NCBI GenBank assembly: GCA_944383705.1
Contig: CALWQR010000002.1
Span: 5,118 to 69,117, forward strand
Direction: 5' to 3'
Source: an uncultured Clostridia bacterium
GTDB taxonomy: Bacteria; Bacillota; Clostridia; Oscillospirales; CAG-272
Length of the DNA: 64,000 nucleotides
Position numbers and translations under genes: made by a program
The notes under the pieces: model-generated
Told to the model about the DNA's origin: nothing
Databases searched by the model: none
Seen by the model: the letters and a program-made list of their open reading frames with translations, nothing else
Shown here: piece after piece, positions 20,184-27,775 of the stretch
How the letters are laid out: every line of letters begins with the position of its first letter
Position numbering within the stretch: the stretch's first letter is position 1

Positions 20184-22826
20184 TCAGCGAAATTCGGTTT
20201 CGCCGTCCGGGAGGTAGACGTGTGTGCGGAGAATCGAGTATTCCTCTTCTGTCGGGTTGCCCGAGAGGATACCGCACTCCCGCCGGGCGGCCTGAATCAG
20301 CAGCTCGGGGTTGAGGTAGCTCCCTTCGCTGGCCGAGAGCCTCGCGCGGATGCGGATAACGCCTGGCTGCGCAGGGTCATATACCGTTTGCACACGGCGG
20401 ATCAGCGGAATCAGGTCAACCTCCTTCTCGCCTGACTTGCTCTTTTTGGTCATGGTCAGCGGTGAGGTGGTATACAGCGCCTGCAGCCGCCCGGCCGTTT
20501 CCGCATCGGCGCCGGCAAAGCGCAGCACAATTTCATAATCCGCCCAGCCGATGTCACGGAATTTCGTTTCGGGCTCGTAGGCCTCGGATACGCGCATCTC
20601 GTCGGTCAGCTCGCGGTTGAGCCGCCCGACCAGCTCCTCGGGGGGCATGTCGCGGTCCAGACGCAGGTCCAGCAGCTCGCACTCGCTTTCGGTTCCCACC
20701 GAAAGCGGCAGACCGAAGGTCACCTTGGCGTGGGGATTGAAGCCCTGCGTATACCACATCGGAATCCCGGCGCGCACCAGCACCCGCGCCAGGGTGCGCT
20801 GCAGGTCCAGGTGAGAGATGTATTGCAGGCTACCCACCTTGCGGAAGCGGACGCGCATGGTTTTGGGGGACTCCAGCCGGGGCCAGGCCCGCAGCGCCTC
20901 CTGCCGGTCGGGCAGGCGGGGCAGGGCCGGGGCGGTGGTGGGCTCGGGCGGACATTCGGCCACGTGCGGGCATACCGCGCGCACGCCCCCCAGCCGGTTG
21001 GCGCCGCAGCCGCTGCAGCTCTCGCGGCAGTTGGGCGTTGTCCTGCCGGCGTAGGCCTTTTCGCGCTCGCGCAGCAGAAATTCCTTGCTCACGCCGCAGT
21101 CGATGATGTCCCAGGGCAGCACCTCGTCGGCGCCATAGGCCCGGTTGGCGTAAAAGGCCGGATCGATTCCGGTGCGGGCAAACACCTCCATCCAGCGCTC
21201 ATAGCTGAAGAACTCGTCCCATGCGTCAAAGCAAAAGCCCTCGCGGCAGGCGAGCTCCAGCGCGGCAGAGAGCCGCCGGTCGCCCCGCGCCAGCACGGCC
21301 TCCACGCGGCTGACCTCGGCGTTGTGATGCTGGTAGCGGATGTGCCGGTTGGTGATTTTGCTGCCCAGATAGCGCTGTTTTTCGGCCAGCGTTTCCATCG
21401 TGTCCTGCGCCTCCCACTGAAAGGGCGTGAAGGGCTTGGGGATGAAGCAGGAAACGCTCACGGTCACCTGCACCTGCCGCGCCTTGTTGCGGTTGGGGTT
21501 TGCGTAATAGGCCTCCACCACCCGTTCGGCCAGCCGGGCAATGCCCTCCAGGTCCTCGGGCGTCTCGGTCGGCAGCCCCTCCATGAAATAGAGCTTGACC
21601 GCGCTCTTACCCGCGTCAAAGGCCACCTGCATGGCGCGCAGCACGTCCTCCTCCCGCACGTTCTTGTTGATGACGTCGCGCAGCCGCTGGGTGCCGGCCT
21701 CGGGCGCAAAGGTCAGGGAGGAGGCGCGCACCGAATCGATGCGGTCCATCAGCTCCCGGCGGAAGCTGTCCACCCGCAGAGAGGGCAGAGAAATGCTCAC
21801 CATGTTTTCGTCGGTCCAGGAGAGCAGCCTGTCGCAGAGCGGCTCGAGCGTGGTGTAGTCGCTGATCGAGAGCGAGGAGAGCGACAGTTCCTCGTATCCG
21901 GTGCTGCGGTAGAGGCATTCGGCCTGCCGGTTGAGCACCTCGGGGGTCTTTTCGCGCACCGGGCGGTAGATCATACCGGCCTGGCAGAAGCGGCAGCCCC
22001 GGATGCAGCCGCGGTAGACCTCAAGCATGATGCGGTCGTGCACGGTTTCGATGTAGGGCATCACCACCTTGTCCGGGAAATAGACGCGGTCCAGGTCTCG
22101 CACAATCTGCTTCTGCACCCGGGCGGGAATGTCGTCATAAACCGGGGTATAGGCCTCAATGGTACCGTCGGGACGGTAGCTCACGCGGTAGAGCGAGGGG
22201 ACGTACACGCCGGGAATGCTGCGCGCCGCCTCGTGCAGAAATTCCGCGCGGGTGTAGCGCCCCTCCTCCTTCATGCGGATGTAGAGGCGGACAATCGCGG
22301 GGAGCATGTTCTCCCCCTCCCCGATGTTGAACAGGTCGAAAAAGTCGGCCACCGGCTCGGGATTGAAGGCGCAGGGACCGCCGCCGATGACCAGCGGGTC
22401 GTCCTCCCCGCGGGTCTCGGCGCGCAGCGGAATGCCGGCCAGGTCCAGCATGTTGAGCACGTTGGTGTAGCTCATTTCATATTGCAGCGTGAAGCCGACA
22501 AAATCGAAGCAGTCCAAGGGGTCCTTGCTTTCCAGCGCCACCAGGGGCAGGCCGTGCGTCCGCATCTGCTCCTGCATGTCCACCCAGGGGTCGTATACCC
22601 GTTCGCACCAGATGTCGGAATGGGAATTGAGCGCGCCGTAAAGCAGGCGGACGCCGAGATTGGACATGCCGATTTCATAGGTGTCCGGGAAGCAGAAGGC
22701 AAACCGGGCCTTGACCGCGGAGCGATCCTTGATCACCTCGCCGTACTCCCCGCCGGCGTAGCGGCCGGGCTTGGAGACCGATTTGAGAATGGTGCTGTTG
22801 GGCCGGTTGATTGGTTTGGTTTTCAT
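20184..22826 (-). CDS. B12-binding-domain radical SAM protein (TIGR03960-type) fused to a TIGR03936/DUF2344 domain
   Basis: N-terminus SKPGRYAGGEYGEVIKD...FAFCFPDTYEIGMSNLGVRLLY is diagnostic of this family. CxxxCxxC is present as YRGCIRGCRFCQAG. The C-terminal 250 aa (MRVRFRKVGSLQYISHLDL) matches DUF2344. Confidence 0.85.
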   Translation of the reverse strand: MKTKPINRPNSTILKSVSKPGRYAGGEYGEVIKDRSAVKARFAFCFPDTYEIGMSNLGVRLLYGALNSHSDIWCERVYDPWVDMQEQMRTHGLPLVALESKDPLDCFDFVGFTLQYEMSYTNVLNMLDLAGIPLRAETRGEDDPLVIGGGPCAFNPEPVADFFDLFNIGEGENMLPAIVRLYIRMKEEGRYTRAEFLHEAARSIPGVYVPSLYRVSYRPDGTIEAYTPVYDDIPARVQKQIVRDLDRVYFPDKVVMPYIETVHDRIMLEVYRGCIRGCRFCQAGMIYRPVREKTPEVLNRQAECLYRSTGYEELSLSSLSISDYTTLEPLCDRLLSWTDENMVSISLPSLRVDSFRRELMDRIDSVRASSLTFAPEAGTQRLRDVINKNVREEDVLRAMQVAFDAGKSAVKLYFMEGLPTETPEDLEGIARLAERVVEAYYANPNRNKARQVQVTVSVSCFIPKPFTPFQWEAQDTMETLAEKQRYLGSKITNRHIRYQHHNAEVSRVEAVLARGDRRLSAALELACREGFCFDAWDEFFSYERWMEVFARTGIDPAFYANRAYGADEVLPWDIIDCGVSKEFLLREREKAYAGRTTPNCRESCSGCGANRLGGVRAVCPHVAECPPEPTTAPALPRLPDRQEALRAWPRLESPKTMRVRFRKVGSLQYISHLDLQRTLARVLVRAGIPMWYTQGFNPHAKVTFGLPLSVGTESECELLDLRLDRDMPPEELVGRLNRELTDEMRVSEAYEPETKFRDIGWADYEIVLRFAGADAETAGRLQALYTTSPLTMTKKSKSGEKEVDLIPLIRRVQTVYDPAQPGVIRIRARLSASEGSYLNPELLIQAARRECGILSGNPTEEEYSILRTHVYLPDGETEFR

Positions 22827-22905
22827 TGATGTGTAGAATCCCTTTCGTATACCGAGAGCGCCCCGCCCGCCGCGCAGCGCGGCGGGAAGAGGGCGCGTGT
22901 GTGGA

Positions 22906-25900
22906 TTATTCGTCCGGACGCAGGCCGAAGCGCGTCAGAAAAAAGGAGATTGCCAGCCACAGCCCGCGGAAGAGCATGGGGAAGAGCACCAGCATGGCCG
23001 GCAGAAAGAGGCTGCGGTTGAGGAAGAGCAGCAGGGCGGCCAGCGCGCCGGCGGCAATTCCGGCCAGCTGCAGCCGCACCCCGGCGGTGCGCACCCGGCG
23101 GATTTCCGCCGCGGCTGCCAGGGGCAGGGCAATGTCATACACCTTTCCCAGCGCCACCGCGCCGCTGTCCGCCACCTCCTGCAGGGCGTCGGGCTCGTAG
23201 CGGCCGGGCTTGATGACCCGCACGTATCCGGCGTCATCCGGCCGGCTGCTCCGCAAAAATGCCTCGTTGAGGTTGGGGTCGTAGGTCTGAATGGCGGTGG
23301 TTGTATCGGATTCGGCCAGCAGCAGGGCCATTTCCTCAAACGAGGAGGCAACGGTGTACTCAATTTCATAGCTCAGCCGCAGTACGCCGTCAATTGCCAC
23401 ATACATCAGGCTGACATTCTTGGCGCGCTGTCCGGTGCGGTCGGTGGTTTCCCGCGGGACGCGCACTCCGCTTTTTGCAAGGAAGGCGGCGTTCCCGGCC
23501 AGCAGGTGATAGCGGTTGTCCACCACCGCCTCGGTGCCGTTTTCGGTCAGCCGTACAAAGGCCACCGGCGGGTCGTCGCTGCTGTGCAGCGGGGCGTTTT
23601 GCCCCACGGCGCCCAGCGTGCCGCTCATTTTGCGGAACAGGACGCCGGCCAGGCGCATATCCTGCCGGAAGTCCTCCCCCTCCCGCACCGAAATCTGTGT
23701 GCACCTCTGGGCGGTGTACATGTCGCTGTCATTGAAGATTACGGTTTTGGGCCGGCTGTATTCCTCCACCGATTCCTCACCGATCAGCGCGCAGTTGCGG
23801 CGGGAGAGGATGGCGTTGGCCCGGCAGAGCGGGTAAAAATAGAGCAGAAGCGAGGAGGTGGGGAGCGTGAACATCAGGAAGAGCGAGAAGGCCTGCAGCG
23901 CTCCGCCGAAGCTGTCGGACAGAATTCCACCGCCGATTCCCCCGAGCACGGCCAGAGCCACGGCCGATGCGATGAAAGCGGTGAACGGGCTCGATGCGTC
24001 CGAAAAATCGTTGCACCGGCGGAAGAATCCGGCAAGCTGTGCGGTGCGGCGGACGCGGTACAGGGCTTCGTCCACGTCGTCGTTGATGATTTTGACGATC
24101 CTGTCCCCGGCGCGCAGTTTTTTCTTGCGGGGCTCGGCGGTTTCCAGCACGGTTTTCTCGCCGTCGGCCGCAGCAATGCGGCAGACCCGCATCTCATCCG
24201 AAAGCCGCAGTGCGTCGCACACCGCGCACACCAGCAGCAGGCCGGACGCCGAGAGATTCAGGGGCAGCGCACCGTCTCCCGAGACGAGCAGCGAGAGCGC
24301 GCCGGTCAGCAGCGAGAGCGGGACAAACAGGCCGGCGGCCGAATAGGGCGTGGGGGTAAAGCGGAACAGACTGCGCAGCCCGGCCGTGATCTGCCGCAGC
24401 GAGAACAGCCCGGCCGCGCAGAGCAGCAGCAGGCCCAGCGCCGGGAAGAGCAGGGGGGCGGCCTCGGTATAGGGCGCAAGAGCGCCGCCGAACAGCCCGG
24501 GCAGGTCGATCGGAATCAGCAGCAGCGTGCAGAGCGCGGTGAACAGCAGGCGCAGCATCAGCCGCCGCCGGTCATGCGCGTAGTGCTCCAGCATCAGCTC
24601 CCGCCGGGGGGCGCCCCCGGTAAAGGCAGGGTTGCGGTAGCCAAAGGCGGTGCGGTACTGCCCGCTGTCGGCCTCCGCCTGCGTGCGGCGGATGTGGTCG
24701 AACTTCAGCCGGCGCAGCGCGTCATAGCCCACCAGGCGCCCCAGCTCGTTTTCGTATCCCAGCTCAAAAATCAGGGCCACGTCGTCCTCGGTCAGATTGG
24801 TCTTTTTTTCGATCAGGGCAATTGCGTTCATGGCCTCTTCGGCCCGCTTTTGCTTCTTTTCCTTCATCACCGCAAAGACCGATTGCTTCCGGGTCTGCAC
24901 CACCTCGGGCTCCTCCATCGGCAGCACCTCCATGGGGCTCTCCTCGGGGACAATCTCGTCCAGCGCCTCGTCCAGGTTGTCGTCCTCGGGCAGGGCGGCA
25001 ATCGGCGTGCGGTTGATGCGCATCGGGCGCTTTTTGGCCGGATGCATCCTGGGCCCGGCCGGACGCAGCCCCGGCCGCGGCGGCTTGGGCGGCGTCTTTC
25101 CGGGAGCTCTGGTGGTTGTATTGCCGGCTCCCGGCGCGGACGTGCGCGCCTGGGGCGCCGGCCCGGAGGCTGCCGCTGCCGGAGCGGTCTTTGGAGCGTC
25201 CGCGGCTCTGCGCGCCTGCGGTGCGGGCGCGGCAGCTTCCGGTGCGGGCTTGGCGGCCTGCGGAGCAGATTGGTTTGCCTGCGGAGCGGATTTGGTTGTT
25301 TCCGGCGCGGGCTTGTTTGCCTTCGGCGCGGGCGCGGCTTTTGCGGCTGACGCCTGCGGCTGTTCGGGAGAGGTGGCCTGCCCGGCCGCGGGCCGCGGCT
25401 GTTCTGCCTGCGGGGAGGGGCTGGGCGGGACCTGCTGCTCCGGGCGCCCGGCTTTCTGCGGTGCGGCCGCAGCCGGTGCGGCGGGCGGATCGAGACGCTT
25501 CGGCGCGTCCGGACGGTCGGTCTGCCTGGGCTTGATGACAATCGGCGCCTGCGGCTGCGCTGCCGGCTGCACCGGTGGAATGACAATTGCTTCCGCCGGC
25601 TGTGTAGGTTTCACTGCCGGTTGCTGTTGCTTTGCCTCCGGCTGCGTCAGCCTGACCTTCGGCTTTTCCTCTGGCTGTGCCGGTTTCGCCGCCGGTTGTG
25701 GCTGCTTTGCCTCCGGCTGTGACGGCTTAACCTTTGGCTTTTCCTCGGGCTGCGCCGGTTTTGCCGCCGGTTGTGGCTGTTTTGCCTCTGGCTGTGACAG
25801 CTTGACCTTCGGCTTTTCCTCGGGCTGTGCCGGTTTCGCCGCTGGTTGTGGCTGCTTTGCCTCTGGCTGTGACGGTTTAACCTTCGGCTTTTCCTCGGGC

Positions 25901-26742
25901 TGTGCCGGTTTCGCCGCTGGTTGTGGCTGCTTTGCCTCTGGCTGTGACGGTTTAACCTTCGGCTTATCCTCGGGCTGCGCCGGTTTCACTGTTGGCTGTG
26001 GCTGCTTTGCCTCCGGCTGCGACTGCCTGACCTTTGGTTTTCCCTCCGGCTGTGGCTGCTTTGCCTCCGGTTGCGCCGGCTTTTCCGGTGGCTCGGTTGC
26101 CGCCGATGCGGTTTTGCCTGCGTTGGATGCGGCTTTTGCCGTTTCGGCTGCGGGCTTGGTTTCTTTGGCTGCGGCTTTGGAGTCTTCGGGGTCAACCTTG
26201 GCCGCCGTGGGAACACTGTCGGCGGTCAGCTTCAAAAGGGCTTCGGGCAGCTTCTGCTCCCCGGATATCCCGTCCTCCGCCGGCAGTTCCTCCTGCGCCG
26301 TCAGGGCCCGGATGGGCGCGGGGGCGGCGCTGTGGGCGGTCTTCTGCCCGCTTCTTTTTTTCGTTTTTGGCTGTTCCTCCGGCGCCGCGTCTGGCTCTGC
26401 TTTCCGGGGGCTTGCCGGGGACGTCCTGCCGGCCGGCTCCGGCTCCGGAGACGCTTTTTTTCCGGCTTTTTGCCGTTCGGTCCGGTCCGGCGTCTGTTTC
26501 CCGGCCTTGCCGGCCGGCTTTTCGGGCGGGGCTGGTGTGTCCCCGTCGTTCGCGGCAGGAGGCTGCCGGCTCTCCTCGCCGGAAACCCGGTTGAGCATTC
26601 CGGCAATTTTGTTCTGAAAATCCACCTCGTCCGCGTCCGGCTTCTGCTTCCGTCCGGACGGTTCCTGGGCGGAGAGCACCGCCTGCTGCAGCTTTTGCAG
26701 CAGTTCGTCGGTATTCTGCTGATTGGTCTTTTTGGCTTTCAT
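22906..26742 (-). CDS. 1278-aa protein: long disordered K/P/Q/E/A-rich N-terminal region with 25-aa tandem repeats, plus a C-terminal polytopic domain resembling a catalytically degenerate P-type (P1B-like) ATPase
   Basis: AAAGGAG RBS precedes ATG 26742. The C-terminal about 700 aa has TM helices and, by eye, aligns to heavy-metal P-type ATPases: ...ALIGEESVEEYSRPKTVIFNDSDMYT at the DKTGT position, TYDPN at TGDN, and GKVYDIALPLAAA at GDGxNDAPAL. Confidence 0.75.
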   Translation of the reverse strand: MKAKKTNQQNTDELLQKLQQAVLSAQEPSGRKQKPDADEVDFQNKIAGMLNRVSGEESRQPPAANDGDTPAPPEKPAGKAGKQTPDRTERQKAGKKASPEPEPAGRTSPASPRKAEPDAAPEEQPKTKKRSGQKTAHSAAPAPIRALTAQEELPAEDGISGEQKLPEALLKLTADSVPTAAKVDPEDSKAAAKETKPAAETAKAASNAGKTASAATEPPEKPAQPEAKQPQPEGKPKVRQSQPEAKQPQPTVKPAQPEDKPKVKPSQPEAKQPQPAAKPAQPEEKPKVKPSQPEAKQPQPAAKPAQPEEKPKVKLSQPEAKQPQPAAKPAQPEEKPKVKPSQPEAKQPQPAAKPAQPEEKPKVRLTQPEAKQQQPAVKPTQPAEAIVIPPVQPAAQPQAPIVIKPRQTDRPDAPKRLDPPAAPAAAAPQKAGRPEQQVPPSPSPQAEQPRPAAGQATSPEQPQASAAKAAPAPKANKPAPETTKSAPQANQSAPQAAKPAPEAAAPAPQARRAADAPKTAPAAAASGPAPQARTSAPGAGNTTTRAPGKTPPKPPRPGLRPAGPRMHPAKKRPMRINRTPIAALPEDDNLDEALDEIVPEESPMEVLPMEEPEVVQTRKQSVFAVMKEKKQKRAEEAMNAIALIEKKTNLTEDDVALIFELGYENELGRLVGYDALRRLKFDHIRRTQAEADSGQYRTAFGYRNPAFTGGAPRRELMLEHYAHDRRRLMLRLLFTALCTLLLIPIDLPGLFGGALAPYTEAAPLLFPALGLLLLCAAGLFSLRQITAGLRSLFRFTPTPYSAAGLFVPLSLLTGALSLLVSGDGALPLNLSASGLLLVCAVCDALRLSDEMRVCRIAAADGEKTVLETAEPRKKKLRAGDRIVKIINDDVDEALYRVRRTAQLAGFFRRCNDFSDASSPFTAFIASAVALAVLGGIGGGILSDSFGGALQAFSLFLMFTLPTSSLLLYFYPLCRANAILSRRNCALIGEESVEEYSRPKTVIFNDSDMYTAQRCTQISVREGEDFRQDMRLAGVLFRKMSGTLGAVGQNAPLHSSDDPPVAFVRLTENGTEAVVDNRYHLLAGNAAFLAKSGVRVPRETTDRTGQRAKNVSLMYVAIDGVLRLSYEIEYTVASSFEEMALLLAESDTTTAIQTYDPNLNEAFLRSSRPDDAGYVRVIKPGRYEPDALQEVADSGAVALGKVYDIALPLAAAAEIRRVRTAGVRLQLAGIAAGALAALLLFLNRSLFLPAMLVLFPMLFRGLWLAISFFLTRFGLRPDE
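25605..26075 (-). repeat. About 6.5 tandem copies of a 75-nt coding repeat (25-aa unit KPKVKPSQPEAKQPQPAAKPAQPEE)
   Basis: The near-identical unit GGCTTTTCCTCGGGCTGTGCCGGTTTCGCCGCTGGTTGTGGCTGCTTTGCCTCTGGCTGTGACGGTTTAACCTTC repeats head to tail on the plus strand. It is in frame with the 22906-26742 CDS. Confidence 0.9.
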
Positions 26743-26775: not shown

Positions 26776-27693
26776 TCAGCCGGCGCCGTGGTGCTGCCGT
26801 GCGGCCTCTGCCAGAATCACGGCGGCGGCAGTGGACACGTTGAAGGAGTTGACCCTGCCGTACATCGGGATGGATACCGCCCCGTCGCAGACCCTGCGCA
26901 CCACCTTGGAAACGCCGTTCCCCTCGCTCCCCAGCACAATTGCGCAGGGACCGCTCAGGTCGGTGCCGTACAGGTTGGCCCCGTCGGCCTCGGCGGCGTA
27001 GACCCACACGCCGGCCTTTTTCAGCTGCTCCACGGTTGCGGCAATGTTGGACACCTTGGCAATGGCCAGATGCTCCACGGCTCCGGCCGAGGCCCGGGTC
27101 ACCAGCGGGGTCAGCCCCACGGCGCGCCGCTTGGGAATGATCAGCCCGTGCGCGCCGCAGCATTCGGCGCAGCGGATCACCGCGCCGAGATTGTAGGGGT
27201 CGGTGATGCCGTCGCACAGCACAATCAGGGGGGGCTCGCCCCGCCCGGCCGCCAGCTTCAGGATATCCTCTACGCCGCAGTATTCCTTTTCGGCCGCCAT
27301 GGCAATGACTCCCTGATGCGGGGCGTAGCCGGCCATGGCGTCCAGCTTGGCCTTTTCGGTTTCCACCACCGGGATGCCGCGCTCCAGCGCCTGCGCCACC
27401 AGCACCACAATCGAGCCGGTGCGCTCCCCGCGCTGTACCAGCAGCTTGTCCACCGGCCGCCCGGAGCGCAGCAGCTCGCGCACGGCGTTCCTGCCGATGA
27501 CGGCGCCGTTCTCGTAGTCACCGTGTATGCCGCTCCCGGCGTCCGGCAGCGGCTGCCGGACGGGGGCGGCGGATGTATCCCGGCGCGCCGGGGAGTGCCG
27601 CGTGGCGTCCGGGCGGCTCTGGGGCCGCTCCGGCCGGCGCTTGGGAGAGCGGGAGGGCGTCCCGCGGCGGTTTTGGTTCTGCTGAGATTCCAT
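26776..27693 (-). CDS. rlmB: 23S rRNA (guanosine-2'-O)-methyltransferase RlmB (SpoU/TrmH family) with a basic N-terminal extension
   Basis: GRNAVRELLRSGRPVDKLLVQ (SpoU substrate-binding domain), then the SpoU methylase motifs LIVLCDGITDPYNLGAVIR, AIVLGSEGNGVS and IPMYGRVNSFNVSTAAAV. Confidence 0.85.
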   Translation of the reverse strand: MESQQNQNRRGTPSRSPKRRPERPQSRPDATRHSPARRDTSAAPVRQPLPDAGSGIHGDYENGAVIGRNAVRELLRSGRPVDKLLVQRGERTGSIVVLVAQALERGIPVVETEKAKLDAMAGYAPHQGVIAMAAEKEYCGVEDILKLAAGRGEPPLIVLCDGITDPYNLGAVIRCAECCGAHGLIIPKRRAVGLTPLVTRASAGAVEHLAIAKVSNIAATVEQLKKAGVWVYAAEADGANLYGTDLSGPCAIVLGSEGNGVSKVVRRVCDGAVSIPMYGRVNSFNVSTAAAVILAEAARQHHGAG

Positions 27694-27746: not shown

Positions 27747-27775
27747 ATTGTATCACAAATTTCCGTTTTTGTATA
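27747..27775 (-). promoter_or_regulatory. Candidate promoter for rlmB operon
   Basis: Minus strand reads TATACA, 17-nt spacer, TACAAT with TGa extended -10, inside a locally AT-rich patch. Confidence 0.4.

Follow-up and report, generated by a model that had tools for sequence, protein, structure and literature searches.

Gene X, an open reading frame (ORF) of 1278 codons on the minus strand of a 64,000-nucleotide (nt) stretch of contig CALWQR010000002.1 from an uncultured Clostridia bacterium (the whole stretch is called the window below), encodes a membrane protein that is descended from a P1B-type ATPase and retains neither the machinery of the P-type cycle nor any metal site. The gene is intact, strongly selected and found throughout one order of gut Clostridia, of which it is a single-copy core gene. 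A fixed nucleophile, the actuator, the Mg2+ motif, a lysine and the metal site are all missing, and their loss supports the view that the protein no longer works as a pump and would be unable to run the canonical Post-Albers cycle. The original prediction, made from the sequence of the window, had described gene X as a P1B-like pseudo-enzyme that keeps the scaffold for a non-transport role. As far as the loss of pumping is concerned this held, since the phosphorylated aspartate, the A-domain with TGES, GDGxND, the histidine of SEHPL and CPC are all gone; the predicted scaffold role is one candidate among several.

A P1B-type core without the machinery of the cycle

Descent from a P1B ATPase was shown by three independent routes, namely structure, profile-profile alignment and a family hidden Markov model (HMM). 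The C-terminal 698 amino acids (aa; residue numbers in this piece are those of the full-length protein minus 580) were modelled with AlphaFold2 (AF2) from 76 relatives, giving a predicted local distance difference test (pLDDT) score of 87.9 and a predicted template modelling (pTM) score of 0.84. When this model was searched against the PDB using Foldseek, the top 50 matches were all P-type ATPases, with ~690 aligned columns for the best, Legionella CopA 4bbj (E 5.4e-13), followed by 3rfu, ATP7B, 7r0g, ZntA and CadA; KdpB (rank 11 onward, E 4e-9), MgtA and P2/P3 pumps ranked below the P1B pumps. A broad family alignment was compared using hhalign with the three CPC-type pumps of the same genome (probability 98.7%, E 4.7e-16, 427 columns) and with all six of its canonical pumps (probability 98.1%, E 7.5e-14, 525 columns). 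The family HMM, run against whole genomes, matched, in genomes of other classes, ordinary P1B pumps carrying DKTGT, TGE, CPx and GDGxND at E values from 1e-19 to 1e-7, and matched the CopA-like gene of this genome at 1.5e-7. A profile of 26 relatives, searched against the PDB, had copper ATPases as its only top matches (N-domain and hinge of ATP7B, best E 0.0011). Single-sequence searches of Pfam, NCBIfam and the PDB with phmmer returned nothing significant, and the P1B relationship is therefore visible through profiles and structure only. The Pfam model E1-E2_ATPase has no match in gene X, although seven other genes of this genome match it.

The P1B-type fold occupies the C-terminal ~560 aa (AF2, Foldseek and hhalign). 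It contains the membrane (M), phosphorylation (P) and nucleotide-binding (N) domain architecture of P-type ATPases and the eight transmembrane (TM) helices specific to P1B pumps, including the extra MA/MB pair and the MB′ platform. The hhalign alignment begins at residue 80 of the CopA-like template, directly after the HMA domain of the template, takes in MA and MB, and sets AGLRSLFRFTPTPYS of gene X against the MB′-M1 signature SGVRGLLHRAPNMDTL; the glycine of the MB′ kink (G788, G208 in the 698-aa piece) is 90% conserved across the order. These results agree with the TM arrangement and domain order that had been proposed by eye. An HMA domain is absent: its region is disordered and then all-helical and has no Pfam match at E<=10, and the all-helical domain, in which G82, Y83 and Y141 (698-aa piece numbering) are conserved, occupies the place of the metal-binding HMA domain of P1B pumps. 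What remains of the A-domain is a four-strand beta stub of ~45 aa (strands at aa 863–904). In M5 and M6 no metal-ligand or polar residues are conserved across the order, the only conserved residue being W1262 (W682 of the piece) in M6.

Motifs were mapped onto the CopA-like pump of this genome, which served as the hhalign template. KTVIFNDSDMYT stands where xxxxFDKTGTLT is expected, and in the alignment EEYSRPKTVIFNDSDMYT lies opposite ETGKTDIVVLDKTGTVT, which puts Asn1004 at the position of the phosphorylated aspartate and Asp1005 at that of the lysine of DKTGT. KTVIFNDSDMYT also matches, without gaps, a stretch of ATP7B that we take to read IKTVMFDKTGTIT. T1153-Y-D1155-P-N aligns with TGD(N), with the threonine and the aspartate kept, the glycine replaced by a bulky residue and a proline inserted. 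The TGES loop falls within a deletion of ~60 columns in the A-domain. CPC is replaced by LPT, its flanking residues being hydrophobic and including neither cysteine nor histidine; Pro961 aligns with the proline of CPC and is proline in 225 of 226 near members and in 32/49 copies order-wide, with L/A/V/M/T and L/G/T/I/V flanking it across the family. The strand bearing GDGxND is deleted, and ADSGAVALG lies opposite the ADVGIAMG that follows GDGxND in the template. The position of the SEHPL histidine is serine in gene X and glycine in 175/226 relatives, and in the GxG of the N-domain the second glycine has become glutamate, while the first glycine and the GN glycine are invariant.

The original prediction had already placed TYDPN at TGDN and had recognised the loss of DKTGT, TGES and CPC/CPx, in all of which it agrees with the map. 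Its equation of GKVYDIALPL with GDGxNDAPAL was rejected, as hhalign puts GKVYDIALPL on the last helix of the P-domain. Its statement that no catalytic motif is recognisable applies to most of the motifs and is overstated for the others, the M4 proline, T-x-D, the GN glycine and an aspartate beside the phosphorylation site having been kept.

Residue conservation was measured in a close set of 226 full-length relatives retrieved around this window and in an order-wide set of 49 copies, drawn without bias from 28 families. Within the 226, position 1004 is N (48), R (34), H (13), E (11), D (10) or P (9) in the close group and D (37), E (14), P (10) or S (9) in the far group, and position 1005 is Asp in 212. 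Order-wide, Asp is found at 1004 in 16/49 copies and at 1004 or 1005 in 46/49; it toggles between the two positions, with five families having it at the canonical 1004 and most of the rest at 1005, and with four copies having it at both. Position 1007 (Gly of DKTGT) is acidic in 174/226 and 37/49, position 1153 (Thr of TGD) is Ser or Thr in 221/226 (98%), and D1155 (Asp of TGD) is kept in 200/226 (88%) and 47/49. N1157 is kept in 40/49 copies order-wide, and the two N-domain glycines G1069 and G1083 are invariant (49/49). After family weighting, conservation reaches ≥75% at 14 positions. Of these, 11 belong to the P/N headpiece, which is better conserved across the order than any other part of the protein; the remainder are G788 in the MB′ kink, P971 at the end of M4 and W1262 in M6. 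Core identity among relatives is 42–76%, with invariant residues, and the gene is under strong purifying selection.

Gene X also holds a HAD-like set of residues (D1005-S-D1007, T1153, K1178 and D1192), in which the aspartate is shifted by one residue from the nucleophile position. Members near the window made it seem plausible that all four HAD catalytic residues are preserved, K1178 (motif III) being Lys or Arg in 215/226 and D1192 (motif IV) Asp or Glu in 206/226, but this was rejected on the 28-family sample, in which the two are kept in only 5/49 and 7/49 copies; the stretch from TYDPN to M5 is poorly aligned order-wide, and part of this loss could be an alignment effect.

Distribution, neighbourhood and the N-terminal arm

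An exhaustive phmmer search returned 1374 representatives at 50% identity with E<=1e-3, 862 with E<=1e-10 and 204 with E<=1e-30. At E<=1e-20, gene X was found in 183/201 sampled genomes of the order of the window (by subset, 155/169 high-quality genomes and 113/121 genera), essentially all 30 families carrying it, and almost every genome that has it gave one match only. We take this order to be Oscillospirales (GTDB). The resulting prevalence of 91% is an underestimate, because at least two genomes counted as misses (G190 and G475) do have a copy behind rlmB, one that has diverged further. Across 400 sampled genomes of the phylum, strong matches were confined to the same order and the inspected top matches elsewhere were canonical pumps, a sampling result that means "not found" outside the order rather than absent. 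Within the family no bridging member with an intact DKTGT was found, and the weaker HMM matches outside the order were ordinary P1B pumps. Named carriers are the cultured [Clostridium] cellulosi DG5 (CCDG5_1306, UniProt A0A078KTC7) and Ethanoligenens sp. (WP_415532463.1), both NCBI Oscillospiraceae; the former copy is annotated only as "hypothetical" or "uncharacterized". All named relatives are "hypothetical", two low-complexity matches are the only Pfam domains recorded among the representatives, no Pfam or NCBIfam model covers the family, and a search of full-text literature found no description of it. In several genomes of one genus (g310, family f168) and of one family (f152), all copies were flagged with one internal TAA, with matches to profile positions 774–776. 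This is probably the alignment running past the true C-terminal stop, a conserved split or read-through being the less probable alternative.

The flanking genes are as the original prediction had named them, RlmB (TIGR00186) on one side and a TIGR03960 radical SAM protein on the other, and the ribosome-binding site (RBS) that it had called good is AAGGAG, lying 7 nt ahead of the ATG. In the radical SAM neighbour, TIGR03960 (aa 12–614, 1e-278) and the "radical SAM-associated" TIGR03936 (aa 657–869, 6e-48) are fused into one protein of 880 aa. Among 58 close loci, rlmB precedes gene X in 51/51 with enough upstream flank, the radical SAM gene follows in 53/58 (the remaining five stop at the contig end), and this order, with all three genes on the same strand, holds in 47/47 that are flanked enough on both sides, the other 11 being at a contig edge. 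In seven of seven distant genomes of the same order (GC 26–57%), rlmB lies directly before gene X, with gaps of 3–58 nt or abutting, and the rlmB-X adjacency as a whole spans genomes of 26–65% GC. In four distant genomes of the order with wider flanks, the radical SAM gene was not found within 8 kb of gene X; two of these loci run on into metG-tatD. The ancient partner of gene X is thus rlmB and not the radical SAM enzyme. The radical SAM gene was rejected as a family-wide functional partner, since it is adjacent in the close subfamily only, and the predicted rlmB-X-radical SAM arrangement holds among close relatives, whereas order-wide only the rlmB part of it stands.

The promoter-like site upstream of rlmB is the only one found on the minus strand for rlmB, gene X and the radical SAM gene, and no minus-strand terminator-like site was found between them; the three genes accordingly look like one operon. 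From the promoter, gaps and RBS, gene X looks to be transcribed together with rlmB and in many genomes translationally coupled to it. The 79-nt spacer that separates the stop codon of gene X from the radical SAM gene contains a perfect GC hairpin of 9 base pairs, CCCGCCGCG-ctg-CGCGGCGGG (22866–22886, minus strand). No T-run follows it, so that it does not fit the terminator consensus; it could serve in processing or stability. RlmB itself carries a basic, disordered, Pro/Arg/Ser-rich N-terminal extension of ~60 aa (MESQQNQNRRGTPSRSPKRRPERPQSRPD..., 27514–27693, minus strand), the TIGR00186 match beginning at residue 64.

The N-terminal part of gene X encodes a disordered arm consisting of 20% A, 20% P, 12% K, 11% Q and 8% E, with a net charge of +27 across the first 560 aa and an AF2 pLDDT below 50 for the piece of it that was modelled. 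Composition and Tandem Repeats Finder (TRF) agree with the K/P/Q/E/A-rich low-complexity N-terminal half with 25-aa tandem repeats that had been predicted. Further short arrays of a 21-nt (7-aa) repeat lie in the arm at 25238–25331 and 26123–26186 (minus strand). Arm length in the family is 0–686 aa (median 287). In a near-identical strain variant (P0003) the arm lacks exactly 50 aa, or two 25-aa units, so that the copy number is strain-variable, and there are two further 7-aa indels (PAPEANK and PQANQSA), apparently within the array at 25238–25331, against only 4 substitutions in the 698 aa of the core. The tip of the arm is conserved: a strict tip pattern was matched by 89/224 members, with 0.6 expected from shuffled N-termini, and by eye the tip can be recognised in almost every long-armed member, even at ~25% core identity (SADELLKRLKEN, SADDLLQNLKKN). 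Repeat variation between strains, set against the near-constant core and the recurrent tip, indicates that the arm evolves freely as a spacer while tip and core are held.

Table 1. Positions of gene X, its parts and its neighbours in the window (all on the minus strand)
Feature	Position in window	Strand	Basis or remark
Gene X, degenerate P1B-ATPase-like membrane protein, 1278 aa	22906..26742 (incl. stop codon)	-	ORF and translation
Conserved arm tip, aa 1-50: helix-like TDELLQKLQQAVLS, then PDADEVDFQNK	26593..26742	-	
Disordered A/P/K/Q/E-rich arm, aa ~51-585	24988..26592	-	Composition
In-frame tandem repeat, 75 nt (25 aa) x 6.4 copies	25591..26073	-	TRF score 630, 85% matches
Acidic LDEALDE and all-helical cytosolic domain, aa 587-710, ELGYENELGRLVGY	24613..24984	-	AF2 helices H42-109 of the 698-aa piece
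TM helices MA, MB, M1, M2, aa 711-857	24172..24612	-	AF2; MB′-M1 signature AGLRSLFRFTPTPYS (canonical GxRxLxxxxPNMDxL)
A-domain stub, aa 863-911, basic loop EPRKKKLRAGDRIVK	24010..24156	-	AF2 strands E283-324 (698-aa piece)
TM helices M3-M4, aa 914-980	23803..24003	-	M4 Pro961 in LPT instead of CPC
P/N headpiece, aa 984-1197, degenerate phosphorylation and nucleotide-binding domains	23152..23793	-	AF2, Foldseek, hhalign
Degenerate phosphorylation site KTVIFNDSDMYT, aa 999-1010	23713..23748	-	Asn1004 replaces phospho-Asp; Asp1005 conserved
TYDPN, aa 1153-1157, counterpart of TGD(N)	23272..23286	-	hhalign
TM helices M5-M6, aa 1201-1273	22924..23142	-	AF2 helices H621-661, H668-693
rlmB (23S rRNA Gm2251 2′-O-methyltransferase)	26776..27693	-	TIGR00186, 6.6e-60; 33-nt gap upstream of gene X
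Promoter-like site upstream of rlmB	27747..27775	-	TATACA-17-TACAAT, extended TG
Fused TIGR03960 and TIGR03936 B12-binding radical SAM protein	20184..22826	-	79 nt downstream of gene X

Candidate functions

In our reading, the shell of the old active site has been preserved by selection, which would fit a ligand-binding pseudo-enzyme better than an inert anchor. Given the conserved headpiece and the Asp at 1004 or 1005 in 46/49 copies, a residual ligand-binding or switch function appears at least as likely as a passive scaffold. We propose as the likeliest reading, with our confidence evenly divided for and against, that gene X encodes a non-pumping, membrane-anchored pseudo-ATPase switch or scaffold with a pocket that binds a small ligand and a tip that recruits a cytoplasmic partner. 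The protein keeps the membrane domain of eight helices, along with the P and N domains, of a CopA-like P1B ancestor; in this proposal the remnant of the P/N pocket (Asp1005, acidic 1007, Thr1153-x-Asp1155, Gly1069 and Gly1083) would bind a phosphate- or nucleotide-type ligand or Mg2+, the bound ligand would set the conformation of the headpiece, and the long, rapidly evolving disordered arm would present the conserved tip peptide to a putative cytoplasmic partner. Several points weigh against this proposal. Ligand binding by the pocket is predicted from conservation only, and the linkage to rlmB may reflect nothing but shared constitutive expression. The motif III Lys and motif IV Asp, at 95% and 86% near the window against 5/49 and 7/49 order-wide, indicate that the old pocket is not uniformly kept, and an Ethanoligenens-like lineage lacks Asp1005 and Thr1153 altogether.

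The same conserved residues could instead belong to an enzyme or transporter of unconventional chemistry, in which Asp1005 (Asp1004 elsewhere) would act as nucleophile and the acidic residue two or three positions further along (D1007) as general acid/base, as in the DxD of HAD phosphatases, an intrinsic acid/base that would make the lost TGES actuator unnecessary. The order-wide Asp at 1004/1005, the acidic residue at 1007 in 37/49 copies, S/T1153 and D1155 in the 226 members, the conservation of the headpiece above all other regions and the D-S-D of gene X, which reads like HAD motif I, are in its favour. We nevertheless judge it quite unlikely, as both hhalign and the ungapped ATP7B match place the conserved Asp at the lysine and not the nucleophile position of DKTGT; entire sub-lineages have Arg, Met, Asn or Ser at 1007; the Ethanoligenens-like copies lack the conserved Asp; neither the motif III Lys nor the motif IV Asp is kept across the order; the SEHPL histidine and the second glycine of GxG are lost; and no polar or metal-binding residues surround the M4 proline. 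The position of rlmB directly before gene X in 51 close loci and seven distant genomes, often with 3-nt gaps or abutting, would suit a dedicated partner of RlmB or of ribosome biogenesis that tethers or regulates the methyltransferase or nascent large subunits through arm and tip, as would the two distant loci that run on into metG-tatD and the basic disordered N-terminal extension of RlmB in the window. This too is unlikely: the argument is one of synteny with a constitutive housekeeping gene, and RlmB is ubiquitous, whereas gene X is confined to one order. A combination of the two has a slim chance of being correct: a headpiece rewired around the shifted Asp and an intrinsic acidic residue (HAD-like D-x-D/E), which would replace the lost actuator domain, would retain a reaction or switch that depends on nucleotide or phosphate, and its state would be coupled through the tip to RlmB and large-subunit biogenesis at the membrane.

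That gene X is a decaying pseudogene or an artefact of annotation or assembly, such as a low-complexity ORF fused to a broken pump, is scarcely credible. Nearly all catalytic motifs are lost and high-GC DNA yields many spurious long ORFs, but the frame is intact over all 1278 codons behind a strong RBS, the same architecture occurs in hundreds of genomes from independent assemblies, the core is held at 42–76% identity with invariant residues and is near-identical between strains, and the AF2 model is confident; the conservation effectively refutes this explanation.

Present in about 30 families and covered by no Pfam or NCBIfam model, gene X is more than the curiosity of one genome, and finding its function would give a role to a gene that ranks among the more widespread unknowns of gut Clostridia. 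Major fibre-degrading and butyrate-producing bacteria of the gut and rumen belong to the Oscillospirales-level order. For the membrane-anchored pseudo-ATPase that we propose, knowing the ligand of the headpiece and the partner of the tip would reveal how the scaffold of a pump is put to another use, and the tight, ancient coupling to rlmB offers a concrete, testable lead. The rewired headpiece coupled to RlmB, if it were true, would mean that the P-type ATPase chassis had been turned to a new use in signalling, one that an entire order of gut anaerobes finds essential.

Comparison with known systems

With the P1B-1 Cu(I) pumps (Legionella pneumophila CopA 3RFU/4BBJ, ATP7B 7SI6/7XUK and Archaeoglobus CopA), gene X shares the fold and domain order, the eight TM helices including MA/MB, the MB′-M1 platform signature, the helix-breaking proline of M4, the strand before the phosphorylation site (KTVIF vs KTVMF), the T-x-D hinge, the GN glycine of the N-domain and the block LxGNxxxLxxxGI...vAiDG. 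It differs from them in having Asn1004, a four-strand A-domain stub without TGE, LPT for CPC and a helical domain for HMA, in lacking the SEHPL histidine and the GDGxND strand, in carrying a disordered arm of 0–686 aa with a conserved tip, and in being fixed behind rlmB rather than in a cop operon. KdpB, the P1A subunit of KdpFABC, is the second-best Foldseek class and has a membrane domain that is not a self-sufficient ion pathway; unlike gene X, KdpB keeps all catalytic motifs and a full A-domain and is phosphorylated. With HAD phosphatases gene X has in common the HAD fold of the P-domain, D1005-S-D1007, the motif II Thr (T1153) and, near the window, K1178 and D1192, but its Asp is one residue off the nucleophile register and the Lys and motif IV Asp are not order-wide.

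A second degenerate P-type ATPase, of P2 type and 901 aa, is encoded in the same genome (G000 contig C21, 19114–21819, plus strand; also L146 7115–9820 and L007 1147–3558). It matches Pfam E1-E2_ATPase (2.3e-16) and Cation_ATPase_N (0.0014), and its nearest solved relative is Listeria LMCA1 (6zhf, E 1e-14, N-terminus and A-domain only). Its sequence has no DKTGT (IVMGPDGLTD), no TGES (PPVQGERPG) and no GDGxND, and it sits after ecfA-ecfT-truA and a 791-aa gene with no rlmB-like gene nearby. Like gene X, it is a P-type ATPase homologue without the three motifs; it differs in being of P2 type, in still being matched by E1-E2_ATPase, in lacking a long arm and in not lying beside rlmB.

P-type ATPases are defined by their phospho-aspartate cycle, and full-text literature searches returned no described bacterial family that keeps the P-type chassis after loss of this cycle. 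Among published cases, the closest one in which a P-type module has been kept while its DKTGT eroded is the P4-ATPase part of the guanylate cyclases of alveolates and stramenopiles (P4GC), in which the module is kept though DKTGT and the Glu motif of the A-domain are eroded in some lineages, and in which the flippase module is thought to be supporting or regulatory rather than pumping (PMC13466520). P4GC are eukaryotic, of P4 type and fused to a cyclase, with the A-domain fold intact and full motifs in other lineages, whereas gene X is bacterial, of P1B type and stand-alone, and has lost the A-domain itself.

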